From: a virus | Lineage: Duplodnaviria; Caudoviricetes | Strand: one strand, 5' to 3' | DNA: 64,000 bases | IMG/VR virus record: IMGVR_UViG_3300028909_000001 | Part shown: piece by piece, positions 6,883 through 64,000 of the stretch | Layout: every line of letters starts with the position of its first letter | How positions within the stretch are numbered: the first letter of the stretch is position 1 | Position numbers and translations under genes: made by a program | The notes under the pieces: generated by a model | The model's input: the letters and a program-made list of their open reading frames with translations, nothing else | Told to the model about the DNA's origin: nothing | The model's database searches: none

Positions 6883-7148
6883 ATGAATATATAGTAGGAG
6901 ATGAAGTTTCTGTAACTCTTAATTCTGGTAATCGAGTTAAAGCAAAGATTATAAGTATTGATAATGACGAGCTTGCACTAAAGTTTGTAGAGTATACAGA
7001 GCTTGTAAACATTGATGCAAGCGGTGGTTCAAGCGGTGGTTCAGGCGGTTGGCCTACTATTCATAGACACATAAATGAGGTAATCTCTTTAGTATCTAAA
7101 ACTAGAAAAGAAAATCCTTTTGATAGGAAACTGGAGTTTGATTTATGA
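6879..7148 (+). CDS. KOW/SH3-like small protein with tail (DRKLEFDL)
   Basis: MNEYIVGDEVSV N-terminus; shared tail. Confidence 0.7.
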   Translation: MNEYIVGDEVSVTLNSGNRVKAKIISIDNDELALKFVEYTELVNIDASGGSSGGSGGWPTIHRHINEVISLVSKTRKENPFDRKLEFDL

Positions 7149-7612
7149 AAATAACAAAAATAGCTAATAGATGGTATGACGAAAACAATAATAGTTGGTC
7201 TACAGAAGAACTAGCTACTCTATACTCACCTACCCTAACTAATTGTAGATGGTGTAGAGATTGTAGAGATTGTAATTATTGTTGTCTTTGTAGTGATTGT
7301 AGTAATTGTAGTAATTGTAGTGGTTGTAGTGGTTGTAGTGGTTGTAGTAATTGTTATAATTGTAATTGGTGTAGTAGTTGTGGTAGTTGTAATAGTTGTT
7401 ATAAATGTACTGATTGTAATGATTGTAGAGGTTGTAGTAATTGTAGTAGTTGTTATAGTTGTAGTTATTGTGGTAATTGTAAAGATTGTTTTCACTGCTA
7501 TTTATGTAAAATTTGTAGTAACCTTAGATTTTATGAAAAAGGATCACAATTAAATACTATTATAAGAGTGGAGGCTAATGCTTTTGACAGAAAATTAGAA
7601 ATAGACTTATGA
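7145..7612 (+). CDS. Cys-x-x repeat protein with tail (DRKLEIDL)
   Basis: Conserved head MKITKIANRWYDENNNSW...YSPTLTNC, (CxX)n repeats, tail. Confidence 0.85.
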   Translation: MKITKIANRWYDENNNSWSTEELATLYSPTLTNCRWCRDCRDCNYCCLCSDCSNCSNCSGCSGCSGCSNCYNCNWCSSCGSCNSCYKCTDCNDCRGCSNCSSCYSCSYCGNCKDCFHCYLCKICSNLRFYEKGSQLNTIIRVEANAFDRKLEIDL

Positions 7613-7914
7613 AAAAAGACACACTTGTAACATTAACCAAATTAAAACCCCTTGAAAATCCAGAGTATCCAACTCCAAATAAAGCAGACTACAGACCAGG
7701 ACAATTTAATGGAAATGTAAGTTTACCAATAGATTATACAGCTACTGGAATCTTATTAAAAGATATTGAGGTTGGAGAGCCTATTCTTATGTTCAGACAT
7801 ATTAGAAATGGGATTAAAACTCCTGGTCATTTTTCTTCTAGCCGAGTCTCTAAAATAGAAGGTAATTTGTTATACACTAATAACAGTATTTATAAAATTG
7901 AAATATTAACTTAA
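7609..7914 (+). CDS. Hypothetical phage protein
   Basis: ATGA-coupled ORF. Confidence 0.65.
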   Translation: MKKDTLVTLTKLKPLENPEYPTPNKADYRPGQFNGNVSLPIDYTATGILLKDIEVGEPILMFRHIRNGIKTPGHFSSSRVSKIEGNLLYTNNSIYKIEILT

Positions 7915-7919
7915 ACTAT

Positions 7920-8342
7920 ATGGAACAACTATATAAAAAGACAAAAAAGAACGGTAAGACTAAATATGCTAAGGTAAATTTAAAAGACTTGGCTGATAAT
8001 TTACTAGTTGATAGAATGACTCTAAGCCCAGGTCTTTGGCTGGTTAAAGAAGTTCCTAATTGTAAGTCATTAAGTTCAGTTTCTAAAGTATCTAGAATAC
8101 CGGATTACCCCTACGATTTTACTAGTATAATCATGAATCGTGACGAACTGGCCGATTTCCTCGTCAAATTTAACAATGATTATTCTAAAAAACATCCTAG
8201 CTCAGGGAATGGATGGCAAATATTTCCGAGTTATTCCGAACTAGCTGAGGCTATTTTAAATGAATTGATTAGACTGGCTGGCCTAGGATTTGGTGAAAAG
8301 CGAGAAGTACCTGTAACTAGAAAATTAGATTTAGAGTTATAA
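7920..8342 (+). CDS. Hypothetical protein with tail (TRKLDLEL)
   Basis: Paralog of 8344 (LSPGLWLVK vs LEAGIYLVK). Confidence 0.7.
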   Translation: MEQLYKKTKKNGKTKYAKVNLKDLADNLLVDRMTLSPGLWLVKEVPNCKSLSSVSKVSRIPDYPYDFTSIIMNRDELADFLVKFNNDYSKKHPSSGNGWQIFPSYSELAEAILNELIRLAGLGFGEKREVPVTRKLDLEL

Positions 8343-8343
8343 T

Positions 8344-8784
8344 ATGGCAGACCTATACTATAAAGTTGGAAAAAGATATAGAGTAGCTTTATCTGATGTA
8401 AGTGAAGGAGCTATGACAACATTTTTATCAGAAGATGGAATAAGACCTACCTTTCTAACTATAGGAAATTTGGAGGCAGGTATATATTTGGTAAAACCAC
8501 TACCTAATACTACTTTAGTGAGCATAATCTCTAAACTAGCTAAATATCCGGATAAACCTGAATTACTGGCTCAAATAAAAGTTACCCAGTCTGAAATGGA
8601 ATATTTTATTGCTGAGTATAGAAGAACTAGGATTACTAGAATAGGAACTGATACATTAAGTAATCAAGAAATAGCCAAGGTTATTTTTGATTATCTTATA
8701 GCTAAATCTGGTATTAAATTTTCGGAGAAGCCGGTTGAAAAAGTTGAACATATAGTAGAACGAAAACTAGAACTGGATTTATAA
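8344..8784 (+). CDS. Hypothetical protein with tail (ERKLELDL)
   Basis: Paralog of 7920; shared tail. Confidence 0.7.
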   Translation: MADLYYKVGKRYRVALSDVSEGAMTTFLSEDGIRPTFLTIGNLEAGIYLVKPLPNTTLVSIISKLAKYPDKPELLAQIKVTQSEMEYFIAEYRRTRITRIGTDTLSNQEIAKVIFDYLIAKSGIKFSEKPVEKVEHIVERKLELDL

Positions 8785-8794
8785 CGGGGCTATA

Positions 8795-9211
8795 GTGATA
8801 ATAGTAGCACGGAAGTTTTGCAAACTTCAGGACACAGAGCGTAACTGTGTAGTTCCAATCCGGTCTGGAAGCATTAAAGTGATGCAGAGAACTCTTAATT
8901 CTCAGAATAGGGAGCGTTACCCTAGCAGACCACCAATTAAAACGAATGATCAAATTGAACATGTAGAACTTATTACTATACCTCTGCCTATAGTACTAGA
9001 AATAGTAAAGGAGTATATAGAAGCTAAATATAATCTAACTGGTGGAGAAATATTTTTAAGAAAACAAAAAGGACCAACACCTGCTACAGGATATATGAAA
9101 CTAAATGAGCCTGAATTGTATGATTTAAAATATAGAACTGTTGCAACACAAGCTGATATACATAAAGATTTATCAGAATTGCTGGAAAGAAAGTTAGAAA
9201 TTGATTTGTAA
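8795..9211 (+). CDS. Hypothetical protein with tail (ERKLEIDL)
   Basis: Shared tail; the true start may be the ATG near 8881. Confidence 0.6.
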   Translation: MIIVARKFCKLQDTERNCVVPIRSGSIKVMQRTLNSQNRERYPSRPPIKTNDQIEHVELITIPLPIVLEIVKEYIEAKYNLTGGEIFLRKQKGPTPATGYMKLNEPELYDLKYRTVATQADIHKDLSELLERKLEIDL

Positions 9212-9677: not shown

Positions 9678-10691
9678 TTACGAAACATTTTTATGCAAGT
9701 GTAATTCAATGGTAGAATGAGGCTCCTCCAAAGCTTTAATGGGCGTTCGACTCGCCTCACTTGCTTGTAATTGTTTAATTAATAAATTAGGTTCTTTTAC
9801 TATTTCCTCCCAATTACCACCATATTTTTTAGTCTTAATGATAACTAGATTTGGCACTTTAGCTGTTTTCATTTTGTACTCTGCTTCTTTAGTAATATAT
9901 CCTTTCAATTCAACGAAAATATTGTTTAAAATAAAGTCAGGATAGTAATTGCGGGATTTACCGTCTAACGTAGTATAAGGAAATCCTTTTAAGTTTCTAG
10001 AATAAGATAGATTTAATTGTTCGGCTATTTTGCAAAAATTATATTCCATAGTTGACTGACAGTGTATTATTGTACCATCTTTTTTGGTATAGTCTGAGTG
10101 TTTACCCCAACCTCCACCTTTACGAGGGCCTCCGGTTTTACCTTTCAATACTTTTGATTGCAGTAACTTATAACAAGCTGAAGAACATGTTGACTTTCTG
10201 CAGTGTGTTTTAAATGGGTTAAGACATATTATACATATTTTATTCACTATTTTAACGACTTGTCCATTTTTATATCTAAAACGAGGAATACCGTCGTTTT
10301 CGTAACGATTTTTTAATGCTAAACTTATGTTCATATTTTTAGTTTTAATTTGTTTTGTTGTTAGATGACTATTCCTATATTTAGCGCTGCAAGACTTATT
10401 GCAAAAATTTAGTTTTGTTCGTTTGATTTCCTTCTGTAATTTATATCTTGTTTTTCCACACTGAGCACAAGTTACAAGTTTTGCAGCATTAGGTTTGCAT
10501 TGTTTTGAACAATAATCGGACACACGACAACTAAGTTTATTTGCAATCTGACGTTGCACTTCATTTTTATTTTTGTAGTATGTTTTATGACAATTACAAC
10601 ATTCTAAAGGTATAAGATCTCTAGAACCACAAGTGTCAAATATAGCTTGTAACATCAATATCTTCATATGAGTTATATTACCACTATCCAC
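9678..10691 (-). mobile_element. Free-standing homing endonuclease-like gene (Zn-ribbon repeats plus a PD-(D/E)xK-like domain)
   Basis: Multiple CxxC...CSxxC repeats and C-terminal YYPDFILNNIFVELKG; inverted orientation within the tRNA array. Confidence 0.7.
9695..9765 (+). tRNA. tRNA-Gly(TCC)
   Basis: GCAAGTG/CACTTGC acceptor; AGGCT-CCTCCAA-AGCTT; no encoded CCA. Confidence 0.8.
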
Positions 10692-10800: not shown

Positions 10801-11325
10801 ATGACAATAACTAAAAGAGACGATAGATGGTATGATGAACGAGGTAATAGTTGGAGAACAGAAGAATCAGCTACTACATACTCACTTACCCTAATTAATT
10901 GTAGAGATTGTAGTAATTGTAATAATTGTATAGGTTGTAGTAGTTGTAGTAGTTGTAGTGGTTGTAATAGTTGTAGTGGTTGTAGTACTTGTTATAATTG
11001 TAGTGGTTGTAGTGCTTGTAATATTTTTAATTATTGTCATGATTGCAGTAGTTGTTTTAATTGTTATAGTTGTACTGATTGTAGTAATTGTAGTGATTGT
11101 AATTATTGTAGTCGTTGTAGTGATTGTAGTAGTTGCAGTAATTGTATTGATTGTAATATTTGTAGTGATTGTAGTTATTGTAGTAGTTGTAGTAGTTGTA
11201 CTAACTGTAATCATTGTGAATTGTGTGGAAAATTAGTTGATCAAAAGTTTCAAGAAAAGATTAAAGACCCATTAATTAGGACAGAGTTTAATGTAGAAAA
11301 CAGGTTACTAGAACCAGACTTATAA
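10801..11325 (+). CDS. Cys-x-x repeat protein with tail (NRLLEPDL)
   Basis: Head, repeats and tail. Confidence 0.85.
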   Translation: MTITKRDDRWYDERGNSWRTEESATTYSLTLINCRDCSNCNNCIGCSSCSSCSGCNSCSGCSTCYNCSGCSACNIFNYCHDCSSCFNCYSCTDCSNCSDCNYCSRCSDCSSCSNCIDCNICSDCSYCSSCSSCTNCNHCELCGKLVDQKFQEKIKDPLIRTEFNVENRLLEPDL

Positions 11326-14006: not shown

Positions 14007-14414
14007 ATGACAATAACTAAAAGAGACGATAGATGGTATGATGAACGAGGTAATAGCTGGGATACTGAAGAAGCAGCTACTTTATACTCACCTACCCTAA
14101 CCGATTGTACTAATTGTTATAATTGTTATAGTTGTACTAATTGTAGTCATTGTAGTAGTAGTTGTATTAATTGTAAAGATTGTAGTAGTTGTAGAGATTG
14201 TTATAATTGTAGTAATTGTAGTAGTTGTAGAGATTGTTATTATTGTAGTAATTGTATTAATTGTAATAGTTGTAGAAGATGTAGTCGTTGTGATAGCTGT
14301 AGTGATTGTAGTGAGTGTATTGGTTGTAATGACTGGACTAATAATAAGAAATATGAACCAGTAATTAGACCATTTATAGATTGTAGAGATAGACTATTAG
14401 ACCCTTATTTATGA
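14007..14414 (+). CDS. Cys-x-x repeat protein with tail (DRLLDPYL)
   Basis: Head, repeats and tail. Confidence 0.85.
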   Translation: MTITKRDDRWYDERGNSWDTEEAATLYSPTLTDCTNCYNCYSCTNCSHCSSSCINCKDCSSCRDCYNCSNCSSCRDCYYCSNCINCNSCRRCSRCDSCSDCSECIGCNDWTNNKKYEPVIRPFIDCRDRLLDPYL

Positions 14415-19152: not shown

Positions 19153-19158
19153 TATTTC

Positions 19159-19272: not shown

Positions 19273-19725
19273 ATGAAGATAACAAAACGAGAAGATAGAT
19301 GGTATGACGAAAACGGTAATAGTTGGTCTACAGAAGAACTAGCTACTAGATACTCTCCTACTCTAACCAATTGTAGTAATTGTAATAATTGTAATTATTG
19401 TAGAGATTGTAGTTATTGTAGTAGTTGTATTTATTCTAATGGTTGTAGTAGTTGTAGTGAGTGTAATGGTTGTAGGAATTCTCTTAATTGTATTAGTTGT
19501 AATTGGTGTAGTAGTTGTGGTAGTTGTAATAGTTGTATTAGTTGTAGTGTTTGTAGTCTTTGTAGAGATTGTACTTATTGTAGTAATTGTAATAATTGTA
19601 GAAAATGTGAAAATTGTTATTTCGTTAGTAGTCTTGAAAATTACGCCCCACTTCTTAAATTTGAACCATCTTCAACTAGACCAGAATTAGATATTAATGA
19701 TAGAAAACTAGAACCAGACTTATGA
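19273..19725 (+). CDS. Cys-x-x repeat protein with tail (DINDRKLEPDL)
   Basis: Head, repeats and tail. Confidence 0.85.
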   Translation: MKITKREDRWYDENGNSWSTEELATRYSPTLTNCSNCNNCNYCRDCSYCSSCIYSNGCSSCSECNGCRNSLNCISCNWCSSCGSCNSCISCSVCSLCRDCTYCSNCNNCRKCENCYFVSSLENYAPLLKFEPSSTRPELDINDRKLEPDL

Positions 19726-21541: not shown

Positions 21542-21994
21542 ATGAAACGACCTACAAGAAAAGCAACATTAGAAGATTCAGTAACGTATATTCTAGCAGA
21601 GATTAAAGAATTAGAAGCTTGTCAATATCTGCTTACGCAGATCATTTATAAACTTACTAATGATTATGCACCGGATGATACTCTTTCTGATAGTGTAGCT
21701 AAGATAACTGAAAGAATAACTCGTAAAAAGTGCAGGCTGTTTGAACAATTAGCCACAATTTCTGTTCTTAGCCCAACTGCTGAAGCTAAGTTAAAACAAA
21801 GATTAATCGATAAATTAAATAAATCTGGTTCATATTTCAGCAATTTTGTTAATCAATCTTGGACTGATATCTCTACCAACCCTGAAGAATTAAAGCAAAC
21901 TATAAAAGATCAGATGAGTAAAGCATTACAAGTAAGAGAGGATGAGGTAGATATGATAGCAGTACCTAAAAGGAAGTTAGAACCAGATCTATGA
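21542..21994 (+). CDS. Helical hypothetical protein with tail (KRKLEPDL)
   Basis: Shared tail; ATGA coupling. Confidence 0.7.
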   Translation: MKRPTRKATLEDSVTYILAEIKELEACQYLLTQIIYKLTNDYAPDDTLSDSVAKITERITRKKCRLFEQLATISVLSPTAEAKLKQRLIDKLNKSGSYFSNFVNQSWTDISTNPEELKQTIKDQMSKALQVREDEVDMIAVPKRKLEPDL

Positions 21995-22446
21995 AGATAA
22001 CTAAACGAGAAAATGATAGATGGTATGACGAAAACAATAATAGTTGGGAAACTAAAAAATTAGCTACTTTACACTCACCTACCCTAACTAATTGTAGTTG
22101 GTGTGGTGGTTGTAGAGATTGTAGAGATTGTAGAGATTGTAGAGATTGTAGAGATTGTAGTAATTGTAGTGATTGTAGTAATTGTAGTTGGTGTGGTGGT
22201 TGTAGTTATTGTATTTGTTGTAATCAGTGTATAAGTTGTAGTTATTGTAGTGGTTGTAGTAATTGTAGTTATTGTAGTCATTGTAATAATTGTAGTGATT
22301 GTGGTTATTGTCATTATTGTAGAAAATGTGAAAATTGTTATCTCGTTAGTAGTCTTGAAAATTACGCCCCACTTCTTAAATTTGAACCATCTTCAACTAG
22401 ACCAGAATTAGATATTAATGATAGAAAACTAGAACCAGATCTATGA
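21991..22446 (+). CDS. Cys-x-x repeat protein with tail (DINDRKLEPDL)
   Basis: Head, repeats and tail; 3' end nearly identical to 19273. Confidence 0.85.
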   Translation: MKITKRENDRWYDENNNSWETKKLATLHSPTLTNCSWCGGCRDCRDCRDCRDCRDCSNCSDCSNCSWCGGCSYCICCNQCISCSYCSGCSNCSYCSHCNNCSDCGYCHYCRKCENCYLVSSLENYAPLLKFEPSSTRPELDINDRKLEPDL

Positions 22447-22817
22447 AGATAACTAAACGAGAAAATGATAGATGGTATGACGAAAACAATAATAGCTGGG
22501 ATAGTGAAGAACTAGCTACTTTCTATTCACCTACCCTAACTACTTGTAGTTATTGTAGTGGTTGTAGTTATTGTAGTAATTGTAGTAGTTGTAGAGATTG
22601 TAGTTATTGTAATCTTTGTAATGATTGTACTCGTTGTACTAATTGTGATTATTGTGATAATTGTAGTCATTGTGGTTATTGTAGTGATTGTAGTGATTGT
22701 TTAGGTTTATATAATTATCGAGATAAAGAAAATTTAGAACCTCAAGTAAGAATATTACCTCCAACATCAAGAATAGAATTAGATATTAATGATAGGAAAT
22801 TAGAACCAGACTTATGA
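22443..22817 (+). CDS. Cys-x-x repeat protein with tail (DINDRKLEPDL)
   Basis: Tandem paralog. Confidence 0.85.
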   Translation: MKITKRENDRWYDENNNSWDSEELATFYSPTLTTCSYCSGCSYCSNCSSCRDCSYCNLCNDCTRCTNCDYCDNCSHCGYCSDCSDCLGLYNYRDKENLEPQVRILPPTSRIELDINDRKLEPDL

Positions 22818-26083: not shown

Positions 26084-26491
26084 ATGACAATAACAAAAAT
26101 AGCTAATAGATGGTATGACGAAAACAATAATAGCTGGTTATCAGAAGAAGCAGCTACTCAATACTCACTTACCCTAACTAATTGTAGTAGGTGTAGTGAT
26201 TGTAGTAATTGTATTGATTGTAGAGATTGTAGTAATTGGTGTAGTAATTGTAATAATTGTAGAGATTGTAGTTATTGTATATATTGTAGTGATTGTAGTT
26301 ATTGTATATATTGTATTGATTGTAATATTTGTAGTGATTGTAGTAGTTGTATTAATTGTAGTAATTGTAGTGATTGTAGAGATTGTAGTAGTTGTATTGA
26401 TTGTAGTGATTGTACTAATAATAAGAAGTATGAACCAGTAACTAGACCATTTATAGACTGTACTAACAGACTATTAGAACCAGATTTATGA
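26084..26491 (+). CDS. Cys-x-x repeat protein with tail (TNRLLEPDL)
   Basis: Head, repeats and tail. Confidence 0.85.
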   Translation: MTITKIANRWYDENNNSWLSEEAATQYSLTLTNCSRCSDCSNCIDCRDCSNWCSNCNNCRDCSYCIYCSDCSYCIYCIDCNICSDCSSCINCSNCSDCRDCSSCIDCSDCTNNKKYEPVTRPFIDCTNRLLEPDL

Positions 26492-27029: not shown

Positions 27030-27461
27030 ATGACAATAACAAAAAGAGCTGATAGATGGTATGACGAAAACGGTAATAGTTGGATAACTGAAGAACTAGC
27101 TACTACTGACTCTCCTACCCTAACTAATTGTTATAATTGTAGAGGTTGTAGTAATTGTAGAGATTGTAGTTATTGTATATATTGTAGTGATTGTAGTAAT
27201 TGTATTAGTTGTATTAGTTGTAGTGATTGTAGTAATTGTAGTAATTGTTATAGTTGTATTGATTGTAGTAATTGTAGTGATTGTTATAGTTGTAGAGATT
27301 GTAGTAGTTGTATTGATTGTAGTAGTTGTAGTGGTTGTAGAGATTGTAGTAATTGTAATAATTGTATTTATTGTAGTGATTGTACTAATAATAAGAAGTA
27401 TGAACCAGTAACTAGACCATTTATAGACTGTACTAACAGACTATTAGAACCAGATTTATGA
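27030..27461 (+). CDS. Cys-x-x repeat protein with tail (TNRLLEPDL)
   Basis: Last 92 nt identical to those of 26084. Confidence 0.85.
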   Translation: MTITKRADRWYDENGNSWITEELATTDSPTLTNCYNCRGCSNCRDCSYCIYCSDCSNCISCISCSDCSNCSNCYSCIDCSNCSDCYSCRDCSSCIDCSSCSGCRDCSNCNNCIYCSDCTNNKKYEPVTRPFIDCTNRLLEPDL

Positions 27462-29003: not shown

Positions 29004-29193
29004 TATAGGTGATGAGGTGGCATTTTATAGAGGTACTCATAGGTTTGAAGGTAGAATAATAAATAGCGCAGCATTTCATGATCATTGGTGTGTTCAATTA
29101 TTGAACTCTAAATTTATGTCAGTACATAAACAATGTTGTAATAAAATTAGAAAAGAAAATCCTTTAGATAGGAAACTAGAGCTTGATTTATGA
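28975..29193 (+). CDS. KOW/SH3-like small protein with tail (DRKLELDL)
   Basis: YNIGDEV; 29-nt overlap with the previous gene. Confidence 0.65.
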   Translation: MSETLTHIYNIGDEVAFYRGTHRFEGRIINSAAFHDHWCVQLLNSKFMSVHKQCCNKIRKENPLDRKLELDL

Positions 29194-29747
29194 CAATAAC
29201 TAAAAGAGATAATAGATGGTTTGACGAAAACAATAATAGCTGGGATAGTGAAGAAGAAGCTACTCTATACTCACCTACCCTAACCGATTGTACTAGTTGT
29301 TTTAATTGTTATAGTTGTATTGATTGTAGTAGTTGTATTGATTGTAGAGATTGTAGTAGTTGTATTGATTGTAGTAATTGTAGAGATTGTACTAGTTGTG
29401 ATAGTTGTAGTGGTTGCATTGATTGTAGTGGTTGTGTTGATTGTAGAGATTGTAGTGGTTGTAGTGGTTGTATTTATTGTATATATTGTAGTGATTGTAG
29501 TGAGTGTTATGGATGTAGAGATTGTAGTAATTGTAGTAATTGTTATAGTTGTATTGATTGTAGTAATTGTAGTGATTGTAGAGATTGTAATAATTGTAGA
29601 GATTGTAGTAGTTGTATTGATTGTAGAGATTGTAGTTATTGTAGTAGTTGTATTGGTTGTAATGACTGGACTAATAACATGAAATATGAACCGGTAATTA
29701 GACCATTTATAGACTGTACTAACAGACTATTAGAACCAGACTTATGA
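29190..29747 (+). CDS. Cys-x-x repeat protein with tail (TNRLLEPDL), longest repeat tract
   Basis: Head, repeats and tail. Confidence 0.85.
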   Translation: MTITKRDNRWFDENNNSWDSEEEATLYSPTLTDCTSCFNCYSCIDCSSCIDCRDCSSCIDCSNCRDCTSCDSCSGCIDCSGCVDCRDCSGCSGCIYCIYCSDCSECYGCRDCSNCSNCYSCIDCSNCSDCRDCNNCRDCSSCIDCRDCSYCSSCIGCNDWTNNMKYEPVIRPFIDCTNRLLEPDL

Positions 29748-31328: not shown

Positions 31329-31652
31329 ATGACAATAACAAAAAGAGCTGATAGATGGTATGACGAACGAGGTAATAGTTGGTTATCAGAAGAATTAGCT
31401 ACTTTATACTCACCTACCTTAACTAATTGTAGTTATTGTGATGATTGTAGTAATTGTAGAAATTGTAGTAGTTGTAGTAATTGTAGTAGTTGTAGAGATT
31501 GTATTAGTTGTTATGATTGTAACGATTGTAAATATGTCTGTTGCCTGACAGACAGAACAAGATTTACTGCTCAATTCGAACCTGCTACAGAAGATACTAT
31601 AATAAGACCTGAACTTGACATTAATAATAGAAGACTTGAAATTGAACTATGA
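31329..31652 (+). CDS. Cys-x-x repeat protein with tail (DINNRRLEIEL)
   Basis: Head, repeats and tail. Confidence 0.85.
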   Translation: MTITKRADRWYDERGNSWLSEELATLYSPTLTNCSYCDDCSNCRNCSSCSNCSSCRDCISCYDCNDCKYVCCLTDRTRFTAQFEPATEDTIIRPELDINNRRLEIEL

Positions 31653-32968: not shown

Positions 32969-33301
32969 ATGAAACTAACAAAACGAGAAAATGATAGATT
33001 CTATGATGAAAACAATAATAGTTGGATAACAGAACAACTAGCTACTGTATATTCACCTACGCTGATTAATTGTAGATATTGTAGTGATTGTAGTAATTGT
33101 AGTAATTGTAGTAGTTGTATTAGTTGTTATATATGTGTTAATTGTAGTAATTGTAGTGAGTGTTATAGATGTAGAGATTGTATTAGTTTGTATAGACATT
33201 ACAACGAAGAAAAATTAAAACCTCAGAAGTATGACACTGAAGATACTATAATAAGACCTGAACTTGACATTAATAATAGAAGACTTGAAATTGAACTATG
33301 A
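32969..33301 (+). CDS. Cys-x-x repeat protein with tail (DINNRRLEIEL)
   Basis: Tail DNA shared with 31329. Confidence 0.85.
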   Translation: MKLTKRENDRFYDENNNSWITEQLATVYSPTLINCRYCSDCSNCSNCSSCISCYICVNCSNCSECYRCRDCISLYRHYNEEKLKPQKYDTEDTIIRPELDINNRRLEIEL

Positions 33302-34382: not shown

Positions 34383-34850
34383 ATGAAACTAACAAAAAGA
34401 TATAATAGATGGTATGACGAAAATTATAATAGTTGGGATACTGAAGAATCAGCTACTCAATACTCACCTACCCTAACTAATTGTAGTAGGTGTAGTGATT
34501 GTAGATATTGTAGTCTTTGTAATTATTGTAGTAATTGTAGTAATTGTAATGATTGTATTACTTGTATTAATTGTAGTGATTGTACTCGTTGTATTAATTG
34601 TAGAGGTTGTATTTGTTGTAATCAGTGTATAAGTTGTAGTGATTGTAGTAATTGTAGTAGGTGTACTAGTTGTAATCGTTGTAGCGGTTGTAGCGGTTGT
34701 AGTGATTGTACTCGTTGTATTGATTGTAGTTGGTGTAGTTTACTTATAGATAGAATAAGATTTTTCCCACAAACTGGCCCTGACAACTCGGAACTAATAA
34801 CTAGAAAAGAAATAGCATTAACAGATCGAAATCTGGAACCATTTTTATGA
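34383..34850 (+). CDS. Cys-x-x repeat protein with tail (DRNLEPFL)
   Basis: Head, repeats and tail. Confidence 0.85.
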   Translation: MKLTKRYNRWYDENYNSWDTEESATQYSPTLTNCSRCSDCRYCSLCNYCSNCSNCNDCITCINCSDCTRCINCRGCICCNQCISCSDCSNCSRCTSCNRCSGCSGCSDCTRCIDCSWCSLLIDRIRFFPQTGPDNSELITRKEIALTDRNLEPFL

Positions 34851-44153: not shown

Positions 44154-44636
44154 ATGAAAAAGGAAACAATTTCTGGTCTATTAATGTGTTTTGGTTGGAT
44201 GTGTGGATTTTTTGTAGCCTGGCTCATCTCAATTCACCAATTTAAACACATTCCTACACCTAGTTATCAAGAACAAACCCAACCTTTTTGTGGGCCTGCT
44301 ACTCTATCCATGTTTGCAGCAGAGGGACTTAACATGGATATTGAGGCTAGTACATGGAATCTGACTAATGAACCAATGACTGCTATAAAAGCAGCTTGGT
44401 TTAAACAGACTGGACAGACTTTAAAATTCGTAGGTAAGATAAAATTTAATCAACCTTATGTTTGGGTTGGTTATTACAATACCAATCCACATGCTTGTCT
44501 AGTCTATTTTACTAGTACATATGTAGTATTAAAACACGGTCTTTACAATCCTTGGACCAGAACTAATTATATGGTTACCTGGCCTTATGAACAATTCTTT
44601 AGCAATACACTTGCAGTTTACACTACTACACTATGA
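44154..44636 (+). CDS. Membrane-anchored papain-like (C39-type) peptidase-like protein
   Basis: N-terminal transmembrane segment; QPFCGPA (Cys), NPHAC (His) and YNPW. Confidence 0.55.
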   Translation: MKKETISGLLMCFGWMCGFFVAWLISIHQFKHIPTPSYQEQTQPFCGPATLSMFAAEGLNMDIEASTWNLTNEPMTAIKAAWFKQTGQTLKFVGKIKFNQPYVWVGYYNTNPHACLVYFTSTYVVLKHGLYNPWTRTNYMVTWPYEQFFSNTLAVYTTTL

Positions 44637-45028
44637 AACTAACAAAAAGAGGTAATAGATGGTATGACAAAAACGATAATAGTTGGGATACGGAAGAACT
44701 AGCTACTCTACACTCACCTACCCTAACTAATTGTAGATGTTGTAGTGATTGTAGTAGTTGTAGTTATTGTAGATGGTGTAGTAGTTGTAGTAGTTGTGCT
44801 TATTGTAGTAATTGTAGTAGTTGTATTGATTGTAGTTATTGTGGTCATTGTAGTGATTGTAATAATTGTAGTGGTTGTACATATTGTAGAGATCGTAAAG
44901 ATTATCATCATAACGTCAATTCTATACAGGACCGAAATAAATATCCTTATTTCGTTTTAAAACTATTTCTTGTATTGCTTGGAGGAACCTTGATACTTAT
45001 GTTAGTAAACTATTTAACAAAACACTAA
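44633..45028 (+). CDS. Cys-x-x repeat protein ending in a transmembrane helix instead of the tail
   Basis: Head and repeats followed by FVLKLFLVLLGGTLILMLVNYL. Confidence 0.8.
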   Translation: MKLTKRGNRWYDKNDNSWDTEELATLHSPTLTNCRCCSDCSSCSYCRWCSSCSSCAYCSNCSSCIDCSYCGHCSDCNNCSGCTYCRDRKDYHHNVNSIQDRNKYPYFVLKLFLVLLGGTLILMLVNYLTKH

Positions 45029-50702: not shown

Positions 50703-50954
50703 ATGAAAAATTCTAAAATTATATTTATAGATGGACATAGGTTAGTTTTATCAGCTATAACTAATTATTATGCATATAATGAGTTTGATAGTCCATCACC
50801 TCAACCTAGAGATCTACTTAAAGCATGGTTGTATATTGGACTTACTGGTAATAAAGGTATTAATCTCAAGTATAAGGAAGGGTCAAAACGTGACCAGGCT
50901 TTAAAACAATTAGATGAAGCTTTTGAATACTATGAAAATAACAAAAAGATATAA
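50703..50954 (+). CDS. Hypothetical protein
   Basis: ORF. Confidence 0.55.
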   Translation: MKNSKIIFIDGHRLVLSAITNYYAYNEFDSPSPQPRDLLKAWLYIGLTGNKGINLKYKEGSKRDQALKQLDEAFEYYENNKKI

Positions 50955-51447
50955 TAGATGGTATGACGAAAACAATAATAGCTGGTTATCAGAAGAATTA
51001 GCTACTCTATACTCACCTACCCTAACCGGTTGTACTAGTTGTATTGATTGTGGTTGGTGTGATAATTGTAGTAGTTGTAATAATTGTAGTAATTGTAGAT
51101 ATTGCAATGATTGTATTTATTGTAAAGGTTGTAATGGTTGCTATGATTGTAGAGATTGTAATAGTTGTAATTATTGTAGAGATTGTAGAGATTGTATAAG
51201 TTGTATTACTTGTATTGGTTTCAAATCTAACCCACAAAGATTTACTTCTTCTAAAATTGGTTCTAGAAACGCTCAAACTACCATTTATTGGGTAGGAAAG
51301 AATGTTCAAGTAGATTGTGGTTGTTTTACAGGAAATTTGACTGAGTTCAAAAACAAAGTAGAAAAGACTCATAAAAACAATAAGTTTGGTAAGCAGTATA
51401 AGAAGTTAATCAATCTGGTTGAACACATTATCAAAACCAAAATCTGA
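50932..51447 (+). CDS. Cys-x-x repeat protein fused to a GSR...CGCF C-terminal domain (no tail)
   Basis: Head from the ATG at 50932; C-terminal IGSRNAQTTIYW...CGCFTGNLTEFKNKV...Y, a domain common after phage repeat proteins. Confidence 0.8.
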   Translation: MKITKRYNRWYDENNNSWLSEELATLYSPTLTGCTSCIDCGWCDNCSSCNNCSNCRYCNDCIYCKGCNGCYDCRDCNSCNYCRDCRDCISCITCIGFKSNPQRFTSSKIGSRNAQTTIYWVGKNVQVDCGCFTGNLTEFKNKVEKTHKNNKFGKQYKKLINLVEHIIKTKI

Positions 51448-55574: not shown

Positions 55575-55577
55575 AGG

Positions 55578-55913: not shown

Positions 55914-55915
55914 AA

Positions 55916-58031: not shown

Positions 58032-58542
58032 ATATTATTGTAGTTATCTAGTTAGTTGCATTAACTCCCAAACTAGGGTCCTGATGCAACAGAAACAGGT
58101 AGCTTTTTTAACTAGATAACTTAATGTTTTACGGTATCAGATAACAAATAAAAGTCAAGAAGATTTTTGCTTAGTAGGTTCAATTTCTATCAATTTAGGT
58201 TCTTTAAGCTTATCTTTGTTCTGCTCATCAGCAATCTCAGTACCTAGTTCATCATAGTACTTGGCCTTTTTAGTAAGGTCGAAATCTGAATGAGAGTCTT
58301 TATCTACGATGCCATATTTAATCATATAGTTTTTGGTGGTGCTTTTTGATCTAATGAATTTAGACTAGCAATACCTGCCACTACACCACTACCTAAAACT
58401 GTAGCACTATTAGATACAGCATCATATACTTTTCTGGTAGGAGAATGTTGTTCTTCTAGTTTTTCAGGTTCTGGTTCCATTGCCATCTTGATTAAATCAT
58501 TAATATCAATCATAGAATTAATTATAGCATCATTACTTATGT

Positions 58543-59199
58543 TTAGCTAACTTTTTCCTGTTTAAGGAATAATAATATTTGTTGATTAGTATTGTACCAA
58601 TCTAATTGAGAGCCTGAAAAAACTACATTTAATTGTCTTTTATCAGGTAACAATAATTTTAATGGACTGCCTTGTTCTGGTACATAAGTTACTGATCCCT
58701 CATTATTAAATACTAGTGCCAGGAATAATTCATCTTCCAATACTGCATCTATCATACCCTTGATCTTACCTGACTCAATAATGAAAGTGACAGGGTATTC
58801 TGTTTTAGTAGGCATAGTTTCTTCCATAATAGGTAATGATTCAATTTCTTGTAGTTTAGCTTTCTTACCTTTTTTAGGTTTGGTTAAGTTTTGTACTTCT
58901 TCAGTTGCTTGCTTAGTAAATTTAATAGTTAAAGGTTCCTGCTTAGCATGTACTGCTTTTATAGGGCCAGTAGGAGTCATTACAAACCCCGGCATCAAAG
59001 AACCTCTATTCTGCATACTATCTAACATTAATCTTTTTAGTTTCTCTGCTTCTTTACTACCACCTACCATTTCACCATTTACTTTCTTTTTACCAAAATT
59101 ATCGAATTTAGGAACAATATAACTTTTAGGTGGAGCAGAAGCATCAGGGCTTACTTCAACGATTTCCGGGTCATAAGGTATGCTTAAAATACTTGCCAT
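58543..59199 (-). CDS. Hypothetical protein
   Basis: 218-aa ORF. Confidence 0.6.
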   Translation of the reverse strand: MASILSIPYDPEIVEVSPDASAPPKSYIVPKFDNFGKKKVNGEMVGGSKEAEKLKRLMLDSMQNRGSLMPGFVMTPTGPIKAVHAKQEPLTIKFTKQATEEVQNLTKPKKGKKAKLQEIESLPIMEETMPTKTEYPVTFIIESGKIKGMIDAVLEDELFLALVFNNEGSVTYVPEQGSPLKLLLPDKRQLNVVFSGSQLDWYNTNQQILLFLKQEKVS

Positions 59200-59202
59200 A
59201 AT

Positions 59203-59625
59203 TTGTTTAATATAATAATTTGTGGTATGACATCCATAACATTAACACAACAGACTGCTCAATCAACCAGACCGAGCAACTACTTATTAAATATTACCGT
59301 CACTTCTTCTAATAATATAGATTCTCATATATTTGTCAAACAACGTATTGTTAGAGCTGATGGTACTTTTGACGATACTTTCTATACTGTAGCTTCACCT
59401 ACTGAGATGGAGGATTTGCCTTATAGTAGTCCTAATCAAGGCAATATGTTTTTCAGAGATAGTGCCATATCTTTAATATCAGAAGATCCCACTTTATTAA
59501 CTGATATAAGTACACACATATATTCTGACATTCAAATTCTATGTCAACAAACGGATGATTTAAGTACTTTATCCACTCCTGAAACCGTTACCATCAATAG
59601 TTCCTCAATTACTGTCTCTCCTTGA
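59203..59625 (+). CDS. Hypothetical (possibly structural) protein
   Basis: S/T-rich ORF. Confidence 0.55.
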   Translation: MFNIIICGMTSITLTQQTAQSTRPSNYLLNITVTSSNNIDSHIFVKQRIVRADGTFDDTFYTVASPTEMEDLPYSSPNQGNMFFRDSAISLISEDPTLLTDISTHIYSDIQILCQQTDDLSTLSTPETVTINSSSITVSP

Positions 59626-59832
59626 CATATAAATAGGTTAGTATAGATTTCCTTAATGCTGGATCAAATATTAAGTATTGGCTTATTTGATTCAGCTCTA
59701 CTATTTTATACGATAAAAATTAACTCATTAGCAGACAATACTCTGCTTATAAATCAACAACTTAGGCTTAAAATATCAAATATTAAGCTTAAATCTAAAG
59801 GGGCTGGAGGGTTGGGGGTAAATTCATAATTT

Positions 59833-60360
59833 ATGTTAAACAAACTCAAAGCTAAATTCATTAATTGGTTATTCAACAGTATTAAACCTGAAACTAAAGG
59901 CGCTGATATAACTTATGTAGGTAAGCATATAATTTACATAGGTAAGAGTAATGAAGTATGTAGTTTACCTACTCATCAATTTTCGGCCCAGTCTGAATTA
60001 AAAGGACTTAAAAGTAATTTAGATAGTCGTTATAGAGACGTATGTGAACTAAGATCTAATATAGAATTATTAGCAAATTCGATTAATTCTTTAAGGACAG
60101 AGATGGAATATATAAGGCAGGTAAGCAATATTATGAGAAGAGATACTGTCGTTGGAGTTCCTGCTAGCGTAGGAGGAGTACTACAAGGAATTAGAGGATC
60201 TGAAATTGTAGTTGATACTAGAAGTGTTGTTCCATCATTAAATGAAGATCCTACAAATTATACAGCCTCTCTAAGACCTACAGTAAGACCAGTAGACGAG
60301 CAATCTACTACTAGAACTATGTATTCAGATGAAGATAGAAATTTAGATCCAAATCTATGA
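59833..60360 (+). CDS. Coiled-coil protein with tail (DRNLDPNL)
   Basis: Shared tail; ATGA coupling. Confidence 0.7.
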   Translation: MLNKLKAKFINWLFNSIKPETKGADITYVGKHIIYIGKSNEVCSLPTHQFSAQSELKGLKSNLDSRYRDVCELRSNIELLANSINSLRTEMEYIRQVSNIMRRDTVVGVPASVGGVLQGIRGSEIVVDTRSVVPSLNEDPTNYTASLRPTVRPVDEQSTTRTMYSDEDRNLDPNL

Positions 60361-60728
60361 CAATAATTAAAAGAAATAATAGATACTTTGATGAAAACAA
60401 TAATAGTTGGATAACTGAAGAAGAAGCTACTCAATACTCACCTACCCTAACTAATTGTAGTAGTTGTAGAGATTGTAGTTATTGTAGAGAGTGTAGAGAT
60501 TGTAGAGATTGTAGTCGTTGTAGTTGGTGTAATGATTGTATTGCGTGTATTAATTGTTATGATTGTAGTAATTGCAGAGATTGTTATGCTTGTCATGCTT
60601 GTAGAAGTTGCATACATTGCGCTAATTATTTAAATAAAATAAACCTAGAACCCCAAGAAATTGTTCGTGAATCAACTTTAAGAGAAGAATTTGACCCGGC
60701 CCAGAGACTTTTAGAACCAGACTTATGA
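60357..60728 (+). CDS. Cys-x-x repeat protein with tail (QRLLEPDL)
   Basis: Head, repeats and tail. Confidence 0.85.
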   Translation: MTIIKRNNRYFDENNNSWITEEEATQYSPTLTNCSSCRDCSYCRECRDCRDCSRCSWCNDCIACINCYDCSNCRDCYACHACRSCIHCANYLNKINLEPQEIVRESTLREEFDPAQRLLEPDL

Positions 60729-61537
60729 GTAATACAAATTATACACATATCGTAGTATTAGTAGACAATAGTGGTAGCATGTTTAATACTAGACAAGCTA
60801 CCGTAGATGGCATAAATAACTTCTTGAATCAACAGAAGGTATTGCCAAGCCAGGATAGAAATCTTAGTTTTGCAGAAGATTTAAGTGATAGTAGTAATAA
60901 TGTTAAATGTACTACTTCGGTAGTATTCTTTAGTAGTGTTAGTCATCCTAGTAATTGGTTTACTAACTATAATTCTAATCATGGAGAACCTGTTGATGTT
61001 AATTTCAATTATGTAGTTCATTTCGATAAAGTTAATATTAACGACATCACTCCTATTCAAGAGATAAGTCCTGTAGGTGGAACTCCATTAATAGATGCAT
61101 TTTGTAAAGCTATTGATGATTGCACACAGTTTATTAATGTGACTAAAGAAGAAGACAGGCCTGGTAGGATTATTTTTCTAGTCATTACTGATGGGGCGGA
61201 AAATAGCAGTACTAAGTTTAAGAAGGATGATCTGTCTAGAAGGATAGCGGATAAACAAAGTCTTAATTGGCAGTTTATCTATCTAGGTGCTAATCAGGAT
61301 GCAATTCAAGAAAGTTCACAATATAGTGTAGCTCCAGGGCAAAGTTTGAATTATCAGCAAACTAGTAGTGGTATTGCATATGCTTATAGTTTAGCTTCTT
61401 CCAATGTCCTACAAAAGCGTTGTGTCGATACTGTTGCCATGTTTACTTGTTCTATTGATGCCCTGGATAAAGTCACAAGTACTAGTCAGATAAGTTTCAT
61501 CACTAATCCAACTTCAACTAATGATACTAAAATATGA
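60725..61537 (+). CDS. vWA domain protein
   Basis: VLVDNSGSM, GTPLIDA and VITDGAENSS. Confidence 0.85.
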   Translation: MSNTNYTHIVVLVDNSGSMFNTRQATVDGINNFLNQQKVLPSQDRNLSFAEDLSDSSNNVKCTTSVVFFSSVSHPSNWFTNYNSNHGEPVDVNFNYVVHFDKVNINDITPIQEISPVGGTPLIDAFCKAIDDCTQFINVTKEEDRPGRIIFLVITDGAENSSTKFKKDDLSRRIADKQSLNWQFIYLGANQDAIQESSQYSVAPGQSLNYQQTSSGIAYAYSLASSNVLQKRCVDTVAMFTCSIDALDKVTSTSQISFITNPTSTNDTKI

Positions 61538-61792
61538 CTTATAAAATCTGTGAAGAAATAACTAGTAAAGGTTGGAATTATGGTGTGACTAATGCTCCAG
61601 CAGAGTTAGTTACCAAAGCTAAAAGTATGATTGACGATGAAATGCCAGTAGTATTTGGAATGATACTGAATACAGATAAACCTAAATGGGTATTGCTAAG
61701 CGTAAATAAAGATAATCAACTTTATGTTGCGGCTAGAGGTGTTGATAGCTAAAAATAAGATGGGAGGATAGTTACTATCTTCCCCTTAATAT

Positions 61793-62245
61793 ATGACAAT
61801 AACAAAAATAAACAATAGATGGTATGACGAAAACAATAATAGCTGGTTATCAGAAGAAGCAGCTACTCAATACTCACCTACCCTAACTAATTGTAGAGAT
61901 TGTAGAGGTTGTAGTAATTGTGATGATTGTAGTTATTGTGATGATTGTAGTAATTGTAGTGGTTGTAGTACTTGTAGAGGTTGTATTAGTTGTAGTGTTT
62001 GTAGTGTTTGTAGTGATTGTAGTAGTTGTAGTAGTTGTAGTGGTTGTAATAGTTGTAGTGGTTGTAGTACTTGTTATAATTGTAGTGGTTGTAATAGTTG
62101 TAGTAGTTGGTGTGATCATTGTATTAATTGTAATAATTGTAGTAGTTGTAGTGGTTGTAATGACTGGACTAATAACATGAAATATGAACCGGTAATTAGA
62201 CCATTTATAGACTGTACTAACAGACTATTAGAACCAGACTTATGA
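61793..62245 (+). CDS. Cys-x-x repeat protein with tail (TNRLLEPDL)
   Basis: Last 94 nt identical to those of 29190. Confidence 0.85.
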   Translation: MTITKINNRWYDENNNSWLSEEAATQYSPTLTNCRDCRGCSNCDDCSYCDDCSNCSGCSTCRGCISCSVCSVCSDCSSCSSCSGCNSCSGCSTCYNCSGCNSCSSWCDHCINCNNCSSCSGCNDWTNNMKYEPVIRPFIDCTNRLLEPDL

Positions 62246-62495
62246 ACAATCCAAACATATCAATAGTTATAGCTAAAAATATAGTAAATGGTAATACTAT
62301 AACCTCAGAATTTAAGCTTAAACCTGAAGAAACAGCTATTATAACTGAACCAGATCACCTAGAATTTACAAACTTCATACCTAATGAAACAGTATTCATG
62401 GAAGCTGATATGAATTTAAGGATGATGAATTCCTTCCTAGAAAAGATTAAAATTTTACCAACTAAACAAAGTATTAATATAAAAATGATAAATAT

Positions 62496-62816
62496 ATGAA
62501 TTATTTCCTCATCGTAGCCAAACCTACCAAAGAGCTAGTCCCACTTAGTATTATAAAAGATTTGTTTGATGGATTTAGTGGATCTACAAATATTTCAAAG
62601 GTATTGGACGAATCAACCGTATATATTAGAATTTCGAGTAAAGAATCACTAAAGAAGGTGGAACTTGATAATAATGATACAGTCTATTTAGCTGCTAAAG
62701 TAGATTCCACTTATTATAAAGTAATAGATAAAGATGATTTTGAATTAGCTACACAGATTTATGCTGAGCTTAAATTGAATAAATGTAGAATACACCCTAA
62801 AATATTGTTTATATGA
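62496..62816 (+). CDS. Hypothetical protein
   Basis: Coupled ORF. Confidence 0.55.
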   Translation: MNYFLIVAKPTKELVPLSIIKDLFDGFSGSTNISKVLDESTVYIRISSKESLKKVELDNNDTVYLAAKVDSTYYKVIDKDDFELATQIYAELKLNKCRIHPKILFI

Positions 62817-63292
62817 CTTTCCTAGAACAATGCTTCCAAGACCATAATAGTACAATAGTTAAAATTAATATAGATTTAGTTAATAGATTGGTTCAAATAT
62901 GGAATACTAATAATACTTATTCTAATTTAACTTTTGGTGGGATAGAACAAAAAAATAACAATAAATTAAAAGTAGGTCAATGTAGAGACATTAACATCTA
63001 TTTAGAGATTCCAATAATAAGTTCTCTTCTATATTTTGAGTTTGATAGATTAACCTATAATTACCACTATTTTAGTCCTGGTTCGGAATATATAGAAGTT
63101 GATAATAGTCTGATTAAAATACAAAGGTCGATTGTACATTATAGTAGTGTTATTCCAGCATTGATCCGAAAAGCAAAAGATATTGAAAAGAAGAAGAAAC
63201 ATTATGCTAAACTAACTACCAGAAGCATAAAAACAGCTCAGCAAGAACTCAAGAATTTCCAGGATGCTATTAAACCAAAAACCAAAAAGTAA
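62813..63292 (+). CDS. Hypothetical protein
   Basis: Coupled ORF. Confidence 0.55.
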   Translation: MTFLEQCFQDHNSTIVKINIDLVNRLVQIWNTNNTYSNLTFGGIEQKNNNKLKVGQCRDINIYLEIPIISSLLYFEFDRLTYNYHYFSPGSEYIEVDNSLIKIQRSIVHYSSVIPALIRKAKDIEKKKKHYAKLTTRSIKTAQQELKNFQDAIKPKTKK

Positions 63293-63325
63293 ACAACCAA
63301 ACCAACAAACCAACAAACTAATATT

Positions 63326-63613
63326 ATGCCTATATCACCATTACCAGCCCTAGTCTCTGACCCTAAAGATGCCATTCTTTGGGCAGTTTTAAATCAATTA
63401 GAGAATATCGATGACACTACCGGTACTAGAATGGCTTTTGCAACTAGTGTAGCTTATAACATTCACTTAGGTCTGGATCGTCCTATATTTGAAGATATTA
63501 TTAGAGAAATTAGAACTGTACTCAAGGTTCCAGAGCCGGTTATCAGTGAAGTTGAAGAACCAGGAACTATGCGGGCTGATATAACTGAATTCGATACTAT
63601 GCGTGACCTTTAA
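63326..63613 (+). CDS. Hypothetical protein
   Basis: ORF with an AAAC-rich leader. Confidence 0.6.
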   Translation: MPISPLPALVSDPKDAILWAVLNQLENIDDTTGTRMAFATSVAYNIHLGLDRPIFEDIIREIRTVLKVPEPVISEVEEPGTMRADITEFDTMRDL

Positions 63614-63625
63614 TTAAGAAGTAGT

Positions 63626-63892
63626 ATGAAAACTTATGACTATAAAGTAATACTAATAAATCATGATGGTTGTAATGATTGCTACAATTGTAGTGATTGT
63701 ATTGATTGTTGGGATTGTAGTGGTTGTAATGATTGTAATAATTGTAGTAATGGTATTAATTGTAGTGATTGTGAAGGACTTTATAATTTTATAAATAAGA
63801 AAAATTGGTCAGCGCAACCTAGCATTGATACAACAAATGAAAAACGACCTATCTTAGACATTAATGATAGAAATCTAGACCCTTTCTTATGA
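63626..63892 (+). CDS. Headless Cys-x-x repeat protein with tail (DINDRNLDPFL)
   Basis: Repeats and tail with a different N-terminus. Confidence 0.8.
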   Translation: MKTYDYKVILINHDGCNDCYNCSDCIDCWDCSGCNDCNNCSNGINCSDCEGLYNFINKKNWSAQPSIDTTNEKRPILDINDRNLDPFL

Positions 63893-64000
63893 CAATAACA
63901 AAAATAAACAATAGATGGTATGACGAAAACAATAATAGCTGGTTATCAGAAGAAGCAGCTACTCAATACTCACCTACCCTAACTAATTGTAGAGATTGTA
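63889..64000 (+). CDS. Cys-x-x repeat protein (3'-truncated by the window)
   Basis: First 112 nt identical to those of 61793. Confidence 0.85.
   Translation, partial: MTITKINNRWYDENNNSWLSEEAATQYSPTLTNCRDC

Follow-up and report, generated by a model that had tools for sequence, protein, structure and literature searches.

Beta-solenoids, the Cys-braced helices of insect antifreeze proteins and fast-evolving viral gene families are already known. The insect antifreeze protein TmAFP (PDB 1EZG) is a narrow, right-handed, Cys-braced beta-helix with 12 residues per turn. It is a secreted protein in which every sixth residue is a Cys engaged in a disulfide, and a Thr-Cys-Thr ladder binds ice. In the 'genomic accordions' of poxviruses and the hypervariable internal-protein loci of T4-type phages, copy number changes and paralogs recombine in near-identical genomes; for both, it is known what the arms race is directed at. 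In the precursors of heterocycloanthracin bacteriocins, Cys-Xaa-Xaa repeats come after a conserved leader, and the precursor genes may lie far from those of the maturases (Haft 2009, PMC2674419). The phage protein family phrog_15341, annotated as of unknown function, also has an N-terminal motif followed by a Cys-x-x tract, and its members are elsewhere mostly encoded in single copy with a CGCF or other globular C-terminal domain. Here we describe a family of Cys-x-x repeat genes in a 64,000-nt stretch of IMG/VR virus record IMGVR_UViG_3300028909_000001 (hereafter the window), which belongs to an uncultured peat phage of about 213 kb. This phage has at least 26 copies of the gene, most of which carry a lineage-private tag instead of the C-terminal domain. 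What is new here is the amplification, re-tagging and reshuffling of the module, together with its extreme codon monotony.

The copies were detected over the whole window with a regular expression and a scan of open reading frames (ORFs) for Cys periodicity and the N-terminal motif, plus alignment. Eighteen copies were found, all on the + strand: 16 are complete and carry the conserved N-terminal part (the head), one is headless (63626..63892), and one is head-bearing and cut by the window end (63889..64000). Eight further copies, lying in about 8 kb past the window, were read from an identical contig (L090), a JGI contig of 212,886 bp that is 100% identical to window positions 55415-64000. 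The genome total is at least 26 copies within about 72 kb. A second sample yielded a contig that matches L090 at 100% identity across 13.6 kb with nine copies inside, and the exact copy proteins are recorded on 31-41 contigs each. Because identical contigs were obtained from two samples and the exact proteins recur on so many contigs, the copies are a real lineage-specific amplification and not one-off assembly artefacts.

The amplified gene has three parts. The head is composed of about 33 residues with the motif W-x-D-x-N-x-N-x-W ... A ... S-x-T-L-x-N-C. It is followed by the tract, which has 11-42 Cys per copy at a strict three-residue period (Cys share, 32-37%). There are 386 in-phase C-x-x-C steps; irregular spacers are few, and most of them are a single Cys replaced or a single residue inserted. 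Such a pattern does not come about by chance. Most x residues are Ser, Asp, Asn, Arg, Ile, Tyr or Gly; aromatic and aliphatic residues (Tyr, Ile, Trp) are common and Thr is rare. No clear preference for multiples of four units was seen in tract lengths and indels. The tail R-x-L-[DE]-x-x-L ends 15 of the 17 complete copies. One of the two exceptions (44633..45028; 131 residues) has the head and the tract but, in place of the tag, ends in a hydrophobic, transmembrane-like helix, with a best 19-residue Kyte-Doolittle mean of 2.61 at residues 107-125. The other (50932..51447; 171 residues) ends, after its head and tract, in a 70-residue alpha/beta domain with the motif GSR...(V/I)(V/I)CGCF.G (phrog_20532, E 5.9e-17), which is absent from the other 16 complete copies. 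A signal peptide was found in none of the copies by sequence inspection. The initial annotation, made from the letters of the window, had listed 17 head-bearing copies and one headless copy, a (C-x-x)n tract of variable length, RxLExxL tails in most copies, the transmembrane end of copy 44633, the CGCF end of copy 50932 and a gene for tRNA-Cys. The ORF scan and alignment bear out each of these points, and the tRNA-Cys gene (anticodon GCA), given here as context, was located at 50606-50679 on the + strand as one of 17 tRNA genes in the window.

In a PHROG search with profile hidden Markov models (HMMs), phrog_15341 matched all six copies tested (E 2.7e-29 to 3.3e-07). For six copies no Pfam family was found at E ≤ 1, the metallothionein, Fe-S, antifreeze (PF02420) and pentapeptide/hexapeptide (LbH/YdcK) families included. 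A word-indexed search returned 104 homologs, most of which consist of the head, the Cys-x-x tract and the GSR...CGCF domain. Close homologs have head, tract and tag together and come from the same peat lineage, to which the tagged form is confined; other relatives end in a WHTC..THCRAGW domain, in DUF3310 or in a membrane helix. Representatives of 50%-identity clusters were searched with a profile built from the head and eight Cys-x-x units, which matched 1,050 of them at E ≤ 1e-3 and 422 at E ≤ 1e-10; the family is mostly viral. The matches include tandem proteins with two [head-tract] units and fusions in which the module is internal, with varied partner domains. In the ESM Atlas, 76 clusters score at least 0.9, none of them with a Pfam family. 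The CGCF domain itself (phrog_20532 / phrog_7964) was confirmed by tblastn at 124 viral loci. As a rule, other phages have a single copy of the module at their IMG/VR loci.

These data indicate that the form with the CGCF domain, as in copy 50932, is the widespread and probably ancestral architecture. In the present phage most copies have swapped the C-terminal domain for the lineage-private tag, one has a membrane anchor, and copy 50932 alone keeps the CGCF domain. The earlier proposal of swappable C-termini that deliver the proteins to different locations thus holds as far as the ends are modular, but the CGCF form is widespread and the tagged form is lineage-specific. Among cultured phages, tblastn with a whole copy gave no match, probably owing to the low-complexity filter, and tblastn with a head-bearing relative gave matches to the C-terminal domain only. 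We found no paper on such phage proteins or on a solenoid module with one Cys in three residues. In a scan of bacterial genomes for 12 in-phase TGY codons, most hits were simple 9-nt tandem repeats, and a head-bearing member was present at one among the 120 loci listed. Short Cys-x-x runs of other kinds were also seen in cellular proteins of Mycobacterium (three loci), Paenibacillus chitinolyticus and Shewanella (one locus each); among them are a mycobacterial family ending in ...CSGLRGAVGLRDVHA, a heterocycloanthracin-like ORF of 90 residues and a signal-peptide-bearing CIGCADC repeat protein.

The diversification of the family can be seen in sister phages, all of whose genomes, like that of the present phage, are short-read metagenome assemblies. 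Sister phage G001, a 41-kb IMG/VR sequence, is colinear with window positions 1-43202. Outside the family it is 99.24% identical to the window over 34,957 nt, whereas the family genes are 86.9% identical over 3,976 nt. Identity is 76-94% for the heads and 66-95% for the tracts; over the final 105 nt of a copy it is 90-100%. In a map of shared 21-mers, each G001 copy is pieced together from window paralogs as far as 47 kb away, and only its 3' end is syntenic. In the colinear region G001 has nine copies and the window 12. One gene of G001 stands in place of the tandem pair 21991/22443, and one hybrid gene stands in place of copies 26084 to 29190, the 3.3 kb between them also being gone (window 26045-29424 versus G001 27957-28105). 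This deletion is bounded by two family copies, and so is a second one of 2.1 kb (L090 6379-8475 versus L091): here another sample is without a stretch of 2,095 nt that lies between copies 61793 and 63889, two copies with about 300 identical nt in common. Between the proteins of L086 and L090, identity is 97-100% outside the family and 75-82% in syntenic family pairs; the headless copy is 100% identical.

Head and tract are therefore exchanged in patches between copies, with the 3' end fixed and the copy number changing. Because the headless copy is unchanged while the head-bearing pairs diverge, the sequences fit an exchange that would be primed by the conserved head DNA. The initial annotation had called the outward residues hypervariable, and this agrees with an identity of 87% in the family versus 99.2% elsewhere and with variation that is concentrated in the first two positions of the x codons. 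A diversity-generating retroelement was also considered. The x codons are of the NNT type and resemble the variable codons of such elements, yet C is near-absent at every position and the variation traces to paralogs; no reverse transcriptase was among the scanned ORFs, which cover part of the genome. Contigs of RNA and DNA runs join one family tract to another: at window 22149/34547 the join skips 12.4 kb (depth 4), and at 26414/26993 it skips 578 nt (depth 53 in DNA). These joins are either low-frequency recombinants or assembly chimeras.

The individual copies show how the module varies in length and setting. Copy 7145..7612 encodes 155 residues, with a head, a 91-residue tract and the tagged tail (phrog_15341, E 3.1e-17), copy 10801..11325 encodes 174 residues with a 109-residue tract between head and tagged tail, and copy 14007..14414 encodes 135 residues in which an NDWTNN-type linker lies between head plus tract and the tag. 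The final 37 residues of copy 19273..19725 (150 residues) equal those of copy 21991..22446 (151 residues) except for one residue. The latter is in tandem with copy 22443..22817 (124 residues) through a stop/start overlap and is the place where G001 has its single gene. Copy 26084..26491 (135 residues) is the first of the three replaced in G001 by the hybrid gene; between it and copy 29190..29747 lies copy 27030..27461 (143 residues, 28 perfect units), whose stop overlaps the start of a gene for an ATP-grasp protein of the R2K clade. Copy 29190 has 185 residues and the longest tract (124 residues, 42 Cys; phrog_15341, E 2.7e-29), and copy 31329..31652 has 107 residues and a short tract with 12 Cys. 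The stop of copy 32969..33301 (110 residues) overlaps the start of a gene for a classical AAA+ ATPase. Copies 34383..34850 and 60357..60728 encode 155 and 123 residues. In copy 61793..62245 (150 residues), the 5' part of about 300 nt is the one identical to copy 63889, which has 141 residues in L090. The headless copy 63626, which is fully conserved between sister phages, has 88 residues with a short tract and the tagged tail; its stop overlaps the ATG of copy 63889.

Such overlaps are the rule among the tagged copies. All of them but 10801, that is 14 of 15, end in TTATGA or CTATGA, where the following gene has its ATG within the last Leu codon of the tag and the stop (junctions at 7609, 14411, 19722, 22443, 22814, 26488, 27458, 29744, 31649, 33298, 34847, 60725, 62242 and 63889, + strand). 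The genes upstream of copies 7145, 21991, 27030, 29190 and 60357 share the same stop/start-overlap ending. Because the tag DNA contains the next start codon, its nucleotide conservation may in part serve translational coupling.

The tracts are written with a very monotonous set of codons. Cys is TGT in 416 of 427 codons, Asp is GAT in 112 of 112 and Asn is AAT in 119 of 121. Ser is AGT in 235 of 238 codons, versus 36% in other genes, and TCN codons are not used at all. The third base is T in 81-98% of tract codons versus 41% in the background, and C makes up 1.9% of tract bases versus 15.8% of the head and tail bases of these genes. Third positions have an entropy of 0.16-0.78 bits; in the x codons, the first two positions have 0.77-1.67 bits. 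The amino acids used at x can be reached from AGT, AAT and GAT by one or two mutations, and in NNY codons no stop can be reached by changes at the two variable positions. The tracts of other phage lineages are equally monotonous, each with its own fixed third base: at six IMG/VR loci they are either all TGT plus NNT without C or all TGC plus NNC. Since the tracts of unrelated phages each keep one third base, codon monotony is a property of the family and not of this phage. Concerted evolution of short units, with variation at the amino-acid-changing positions, would be the simplest reading. The cause may be selection for surface diversity, a constraint on DNA or RNA or strand-biased mutation.

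The same data bear on whether the diversity has any function. Repeat dynamics may be largely neutral: a recombination-prone, weakly constrained gene would have spread through the genome because its conserved 5' end and the tag-stop-ATG junction ease copying from one gene junction to another, and the single copies would have a minor or redundant function. The apparent priming of exchange by head DNA, with the headless copy unchanged, agrees with this, as do the position of copies at stop/start overlaps (TTATGA) in chains of small genes, the differences in copy number and presence among sister phages and the narrow mutational range of the x alphabet. However, in all 17 complete copies the frame is open, the Cys register is preserved and heads and tails are intact, and the module has been kept across about 1,000 diverged clusters. 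Nor is it predicted by pure drift that variability is much lower at third positions than at the first two, or that the rough pN/pS (nonsynonymous relative to synonymous differences) is 2.5 in the tracts and 0.5 in the rest of the genes, an informal count in which the differences come largely from paralog exchange. We consider largely neutral dynamics to be unlikely.

The fold of the proteins was predicted with AlphaFold2 (AF2) for copy 27030, with an alignment of 27 tagged relatives, and for copy 50932, with an alignment of 39 relatives. The best model of copy 27030, which is of moderate confidence, has a mean pLDDT (predicted local distance difference test) of 62.7, with 57-73 in the tract and less than 50 in the tail, and a DSSP period of about 12. 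In copy 50932 the pLDDT is 78-89 in the head and 87-96 in the C-terminal domain. The top match of the tract in VIA-align was TmAFP (1ezg_A; Z 9.5, rmsd 3.0 Å), which aligned with 81 of 82 residues and with exactly the tract; the runner-up had a Z of 6.1, and the remaining matches were nearly all beta-solenoids. For the C-terminal domain of copy 50932 no clear fold match was found (best Z 5.2). The shape recurs in an ESM Atlas model of a relative from a virus (TM 0.59 across 108 residues).

Independent support comes from relatives that share the CGCF domain and have other solenoid repeats in the slot of the tract, namely hexapeptide repeats of the YdcK type (PF18836; up to 86 bits, cut-off 30) or pentapeptide repeats (PF00805; 97.7 bits). 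They include proteins of the cultured Clostridium phage Amboise (WAK79366.1) and Paenibacillus phage Pd_22F (QVQ56278.1), which are annotated as hypothetical and were matched by the C-terminal domain of copy 50932 in tblastn with E 9e-9 and 3e-6, respectively. These proteins share with copy 50932 the plan of an N-terminal domain, beta-solenoid repeats and a homologous CGCF domain, but their solenoid is of the hexapeptide/YdcK or pentapeptide kind and their N-terminal domain is a different one. Because of the match of the AF2 model to TmAFP and of the solenoid repeats in the slot of the tract, it is fairly likely that the tract is a beta-solenoid, as the initial annotation had suggested, with four Cys-x-x units per 12-residue turn, Cys inside, x outside and the head as N-terminal cap. 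The likeness to TmAFP would be one of core Cys and a narrow helix; it is a resemblance of predicted fold and not family membership. Unlike TmAFP, the phage proteins have Cys at every third residue and no signal peptide, Thr ladder or Pfam antifreeze match.

Other roles and folds suggested by the tract were rejected. Ice binding does not suit proteins that are cytoplasmic and without a Thr ladder. A collagen-like triple helix also has a period of three, but Cys is too bulky for the Gly position. DNA mimicry as a general reading is at odds with a tract charge of +1 to -11, and a 12-residue coil is much thinner than duplex DNA.

If the Cys residues lie inside, the core may be reduced, disulfide-bonded or metal-filled. 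The rods could have been multiplied for their chemistry, binding a column of Zn, Cu(I), Fe or Fe-S or acting as thiol buffers; the many copies would supply the dosage needed for storing or sequestering metal, or for taking up oxidants or electrophiles, while the phage infects its host in anoxic, metal-rich peat. One third of the residues are Cys, C-x-x-C is the classic metal knuckle, and the lack of a signal peptide implies a reducing cytoplasm in which disulfides are disfavoured. The family has 427 Cys codons, versus 108 in 8,576 background codons, and the phage encodes a tRNA-Cys; weak fold neighbours in AFDB are labelled 'CXXC-type domain' and 'Metallothionein' (E 0.02-0.05; metallothionein, 0.046). 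On the other hand, solenoids without cysteine fill the same slot in the CGCF relatives, which argues that the rod shape is conserved rather than the thiol chemistry. Tyr, Ile and Trp are common at x, unlike in metallothioneins, the Pfam search at E ≤ 1 gave no metallothionein or Fe-S family, and dosage leaves unexplained why all tracts differ. Metal or thiol chemistry as the main role is rather unlikely, though it is a serious alternative.

The resemblance to heterocycloanthracin and sonorensin (TIGR03601) lies in a conserved N-terminus and strain-variable Cys-Xaa-Xaa repeats with whole-triplet indels (PMC2674419). By this analogy the head would be a leader and the tract a core that phage or host enzymes would turn into thiazol(in)es or thioether cross-links, as in peptides that are made by ribosomes and modified after translation (RiPPs); the ATP-grasp gene directly 3' of copy 27030 and a weak radical-SAM-like gene might be thought of as modifying enzymes. 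The latter (3494-4354, + strand) scores 27.2 bits against a Pfam cut-off of 29.5, with weak NCBIfam matches (viperin-like, maturase-like) and no PDB relative, and is a lead only. The known precursors are 50-90 residues long, their repeat is C-terminal and they are accompanied by a cyclodehydratase, a dehydrogenase and a scaffold protein, whereas the phage tracts reach 124 residues, far beyond known cores, and are internal, with a confidently folded 70-residue domain or a conserved tail after them in nearly all relatives. By prediction the head is a folded part that packs as a cap, and relatives have ordinary solenoid repeats in the slot of the tract. No YcaO, cyclodehydratase, SagB-type dehydrogenase or SPASM maturase turned up in a scan of about 40 of the larger ORFs of the window, and the copies had no NCBIfam match at E ≤ 10, TIGR03601 included. 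A RiPP-like precursor is thus very improbable.

The best overall explanation, to which we give about an even chance, is that a head plus Cys-x-x rod module has been amplified and diversified through exchange and has a scaffold or arms-race role. The amplified unit is the 33-residue N-terminal domain, predicted as a beta-hairpin plus a helix, together with the (Cys-x-x)n tract. The tract would fold into a narrow beta-helix with 12 residues per turn, all Cys in the core and all x on the surface, and the head would cap it. If the fold depends on the Cys register alone, every recombination or slippage event that stays in phase would yield a foldable rod, so that length and surface could vary freely. 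The rods may be display or spacer scaffolds that are docked by means of the C-terminal tag, and their rapid diversification may reflect an arms race in which they serve host take-over or act as counter-defence binders or decoys. Hints of a variable-surface rod that is docked by its tag and has a host-interaction or counter-defence role come from how fast the copies diversify, from their place among early genes and from their modular ends. A bolder form of this explanation is quite unlikely: the tract would be a new class of beta-solenoid with four inward Cys per 12-residue turn and an unbroken column of metal ions or Fe-S centres in its core, a metal-thiolate rod sheathed in protein, and head-primed conversion with NNT-only codons, which do not mutate to stops at the variable positions, would maintain a repertoire of more than 26 rods acting as tag-addressed counter-defence binders.

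The genomic setting also bears on where such rods would act. Tagged rods could be packaged into virions, attached to them or ejected from them, like internal head proteins or decoration rods, the tag being an assembly address; narrow beta-helices are common in phage fibres and spikes, as the fold matches recall. However, the genes lie among replication, nucleotide-metabolism and tRNA genes and not in a structural module, and in other phages the module is found beside genes for single-stranded DNA-binding protein (SSB), helicase, primase, recombinase and methylase, which is a generic early or replication setting. A role as virion cargo is improbable.

Several observations count against the explanation by diversified scaffolds. 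With respect to the fold, the other four of the five AF2 models of copy 27030 have a mean pLDDT of 46-50, the tract of copy 50932 reaches only 44-57, Foldseek against the PDB gave nothing significant for either model, and both predictors may simply recall TmAFP. With respect to the surface, the net charge of the tracts spans +1 to -11, so there is no uniform surface property, and the autocorrelation of x residues rises only faintly at lags 4 and 8 (hydrophobic-x1 correlation, about 0.10). With respect to exchange, short-read DNA contigs break at heads and tracts, and some of the mosaics and both deletions could be assembler paths through the repeats of about 300 nt; many tract sequences are, however, unique to each phage and cannot be explained in that way. 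Finally, the hypervariability could be a neutral by-product of weakly constrained repeats.

The module is present in about 1,000 sequence clusters, mostly of phages, and has no name in databases. If the predicted fold is right, it would be the narrowest kind of beta-helix, with a core of one Cys in three residues, and a new repeat class beside the pentapeptide and hexapeptide repeats. Among the phages considered here, the present one is the best natural experiment on it: its dozens of copies differ only in length and surface, one of them has the probably ancestral C-terminal domain and another a membrane anchor, and in the sister genomes the copies are reshuffled while the rest is unchanged. 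What fills the core, what the surface binds and how hypervariability arises without a dedicated mutator are testable questions, and the rods might serve as minimal protein scaffolds of tunable length.

RNA-library contigs from three peat metatranscriptome studies cover 26-30 of the 30 bins of window positions 19000-38999, parts of family genes included; coverage of this kind carries no strand, level or transcript ends and may include DNA carry-over.

Among the neighbouring genes, the one for the classical AAA+ ATPase (33298-34278, + strand; Pfam AAA, E 2.9e-12), which starts at the stop of copy 32969, has PAN, FtsH, Cdc48 and Mpa types as its nearest NCBIfam families. Because unfoldases of that clade recognise terminal tags, this ATPase is, by analogy, a candidate receptor for the C-terminal tag. 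The ATP-grasp gene of the R2K clade (27458-28303, + strand), which matches PF18299 above the cut-off with 33.9 bits, shows translational coupling with copy 27030, and G001 lacks this gene together with two family copies. A gene for a MYG1-family (UPF0160) protein (51451-52437, + strand; E 9.5e-55) lies directly 3' of the CGCF copy 50932. The window also encodes a UvsX-like recombinase, a DNA ligase and a PurZ-like adenylosuccinate synthetase (40131-41573, + strand; phrog_1211, E 7.9e-75), the last of which is followed by a gene for a conserved 315-residue protein (41576-42523, + strand; phrog_2971). The phage may replace the adenine of its DNA with 2-aminoadenine. Two HNH-type endonuclease genes were found, one at 36327-36998 on the + strand and the other on the opposite strand at 9678-10691, where it overlaps a tRNA-Gly gene (9695-9765).

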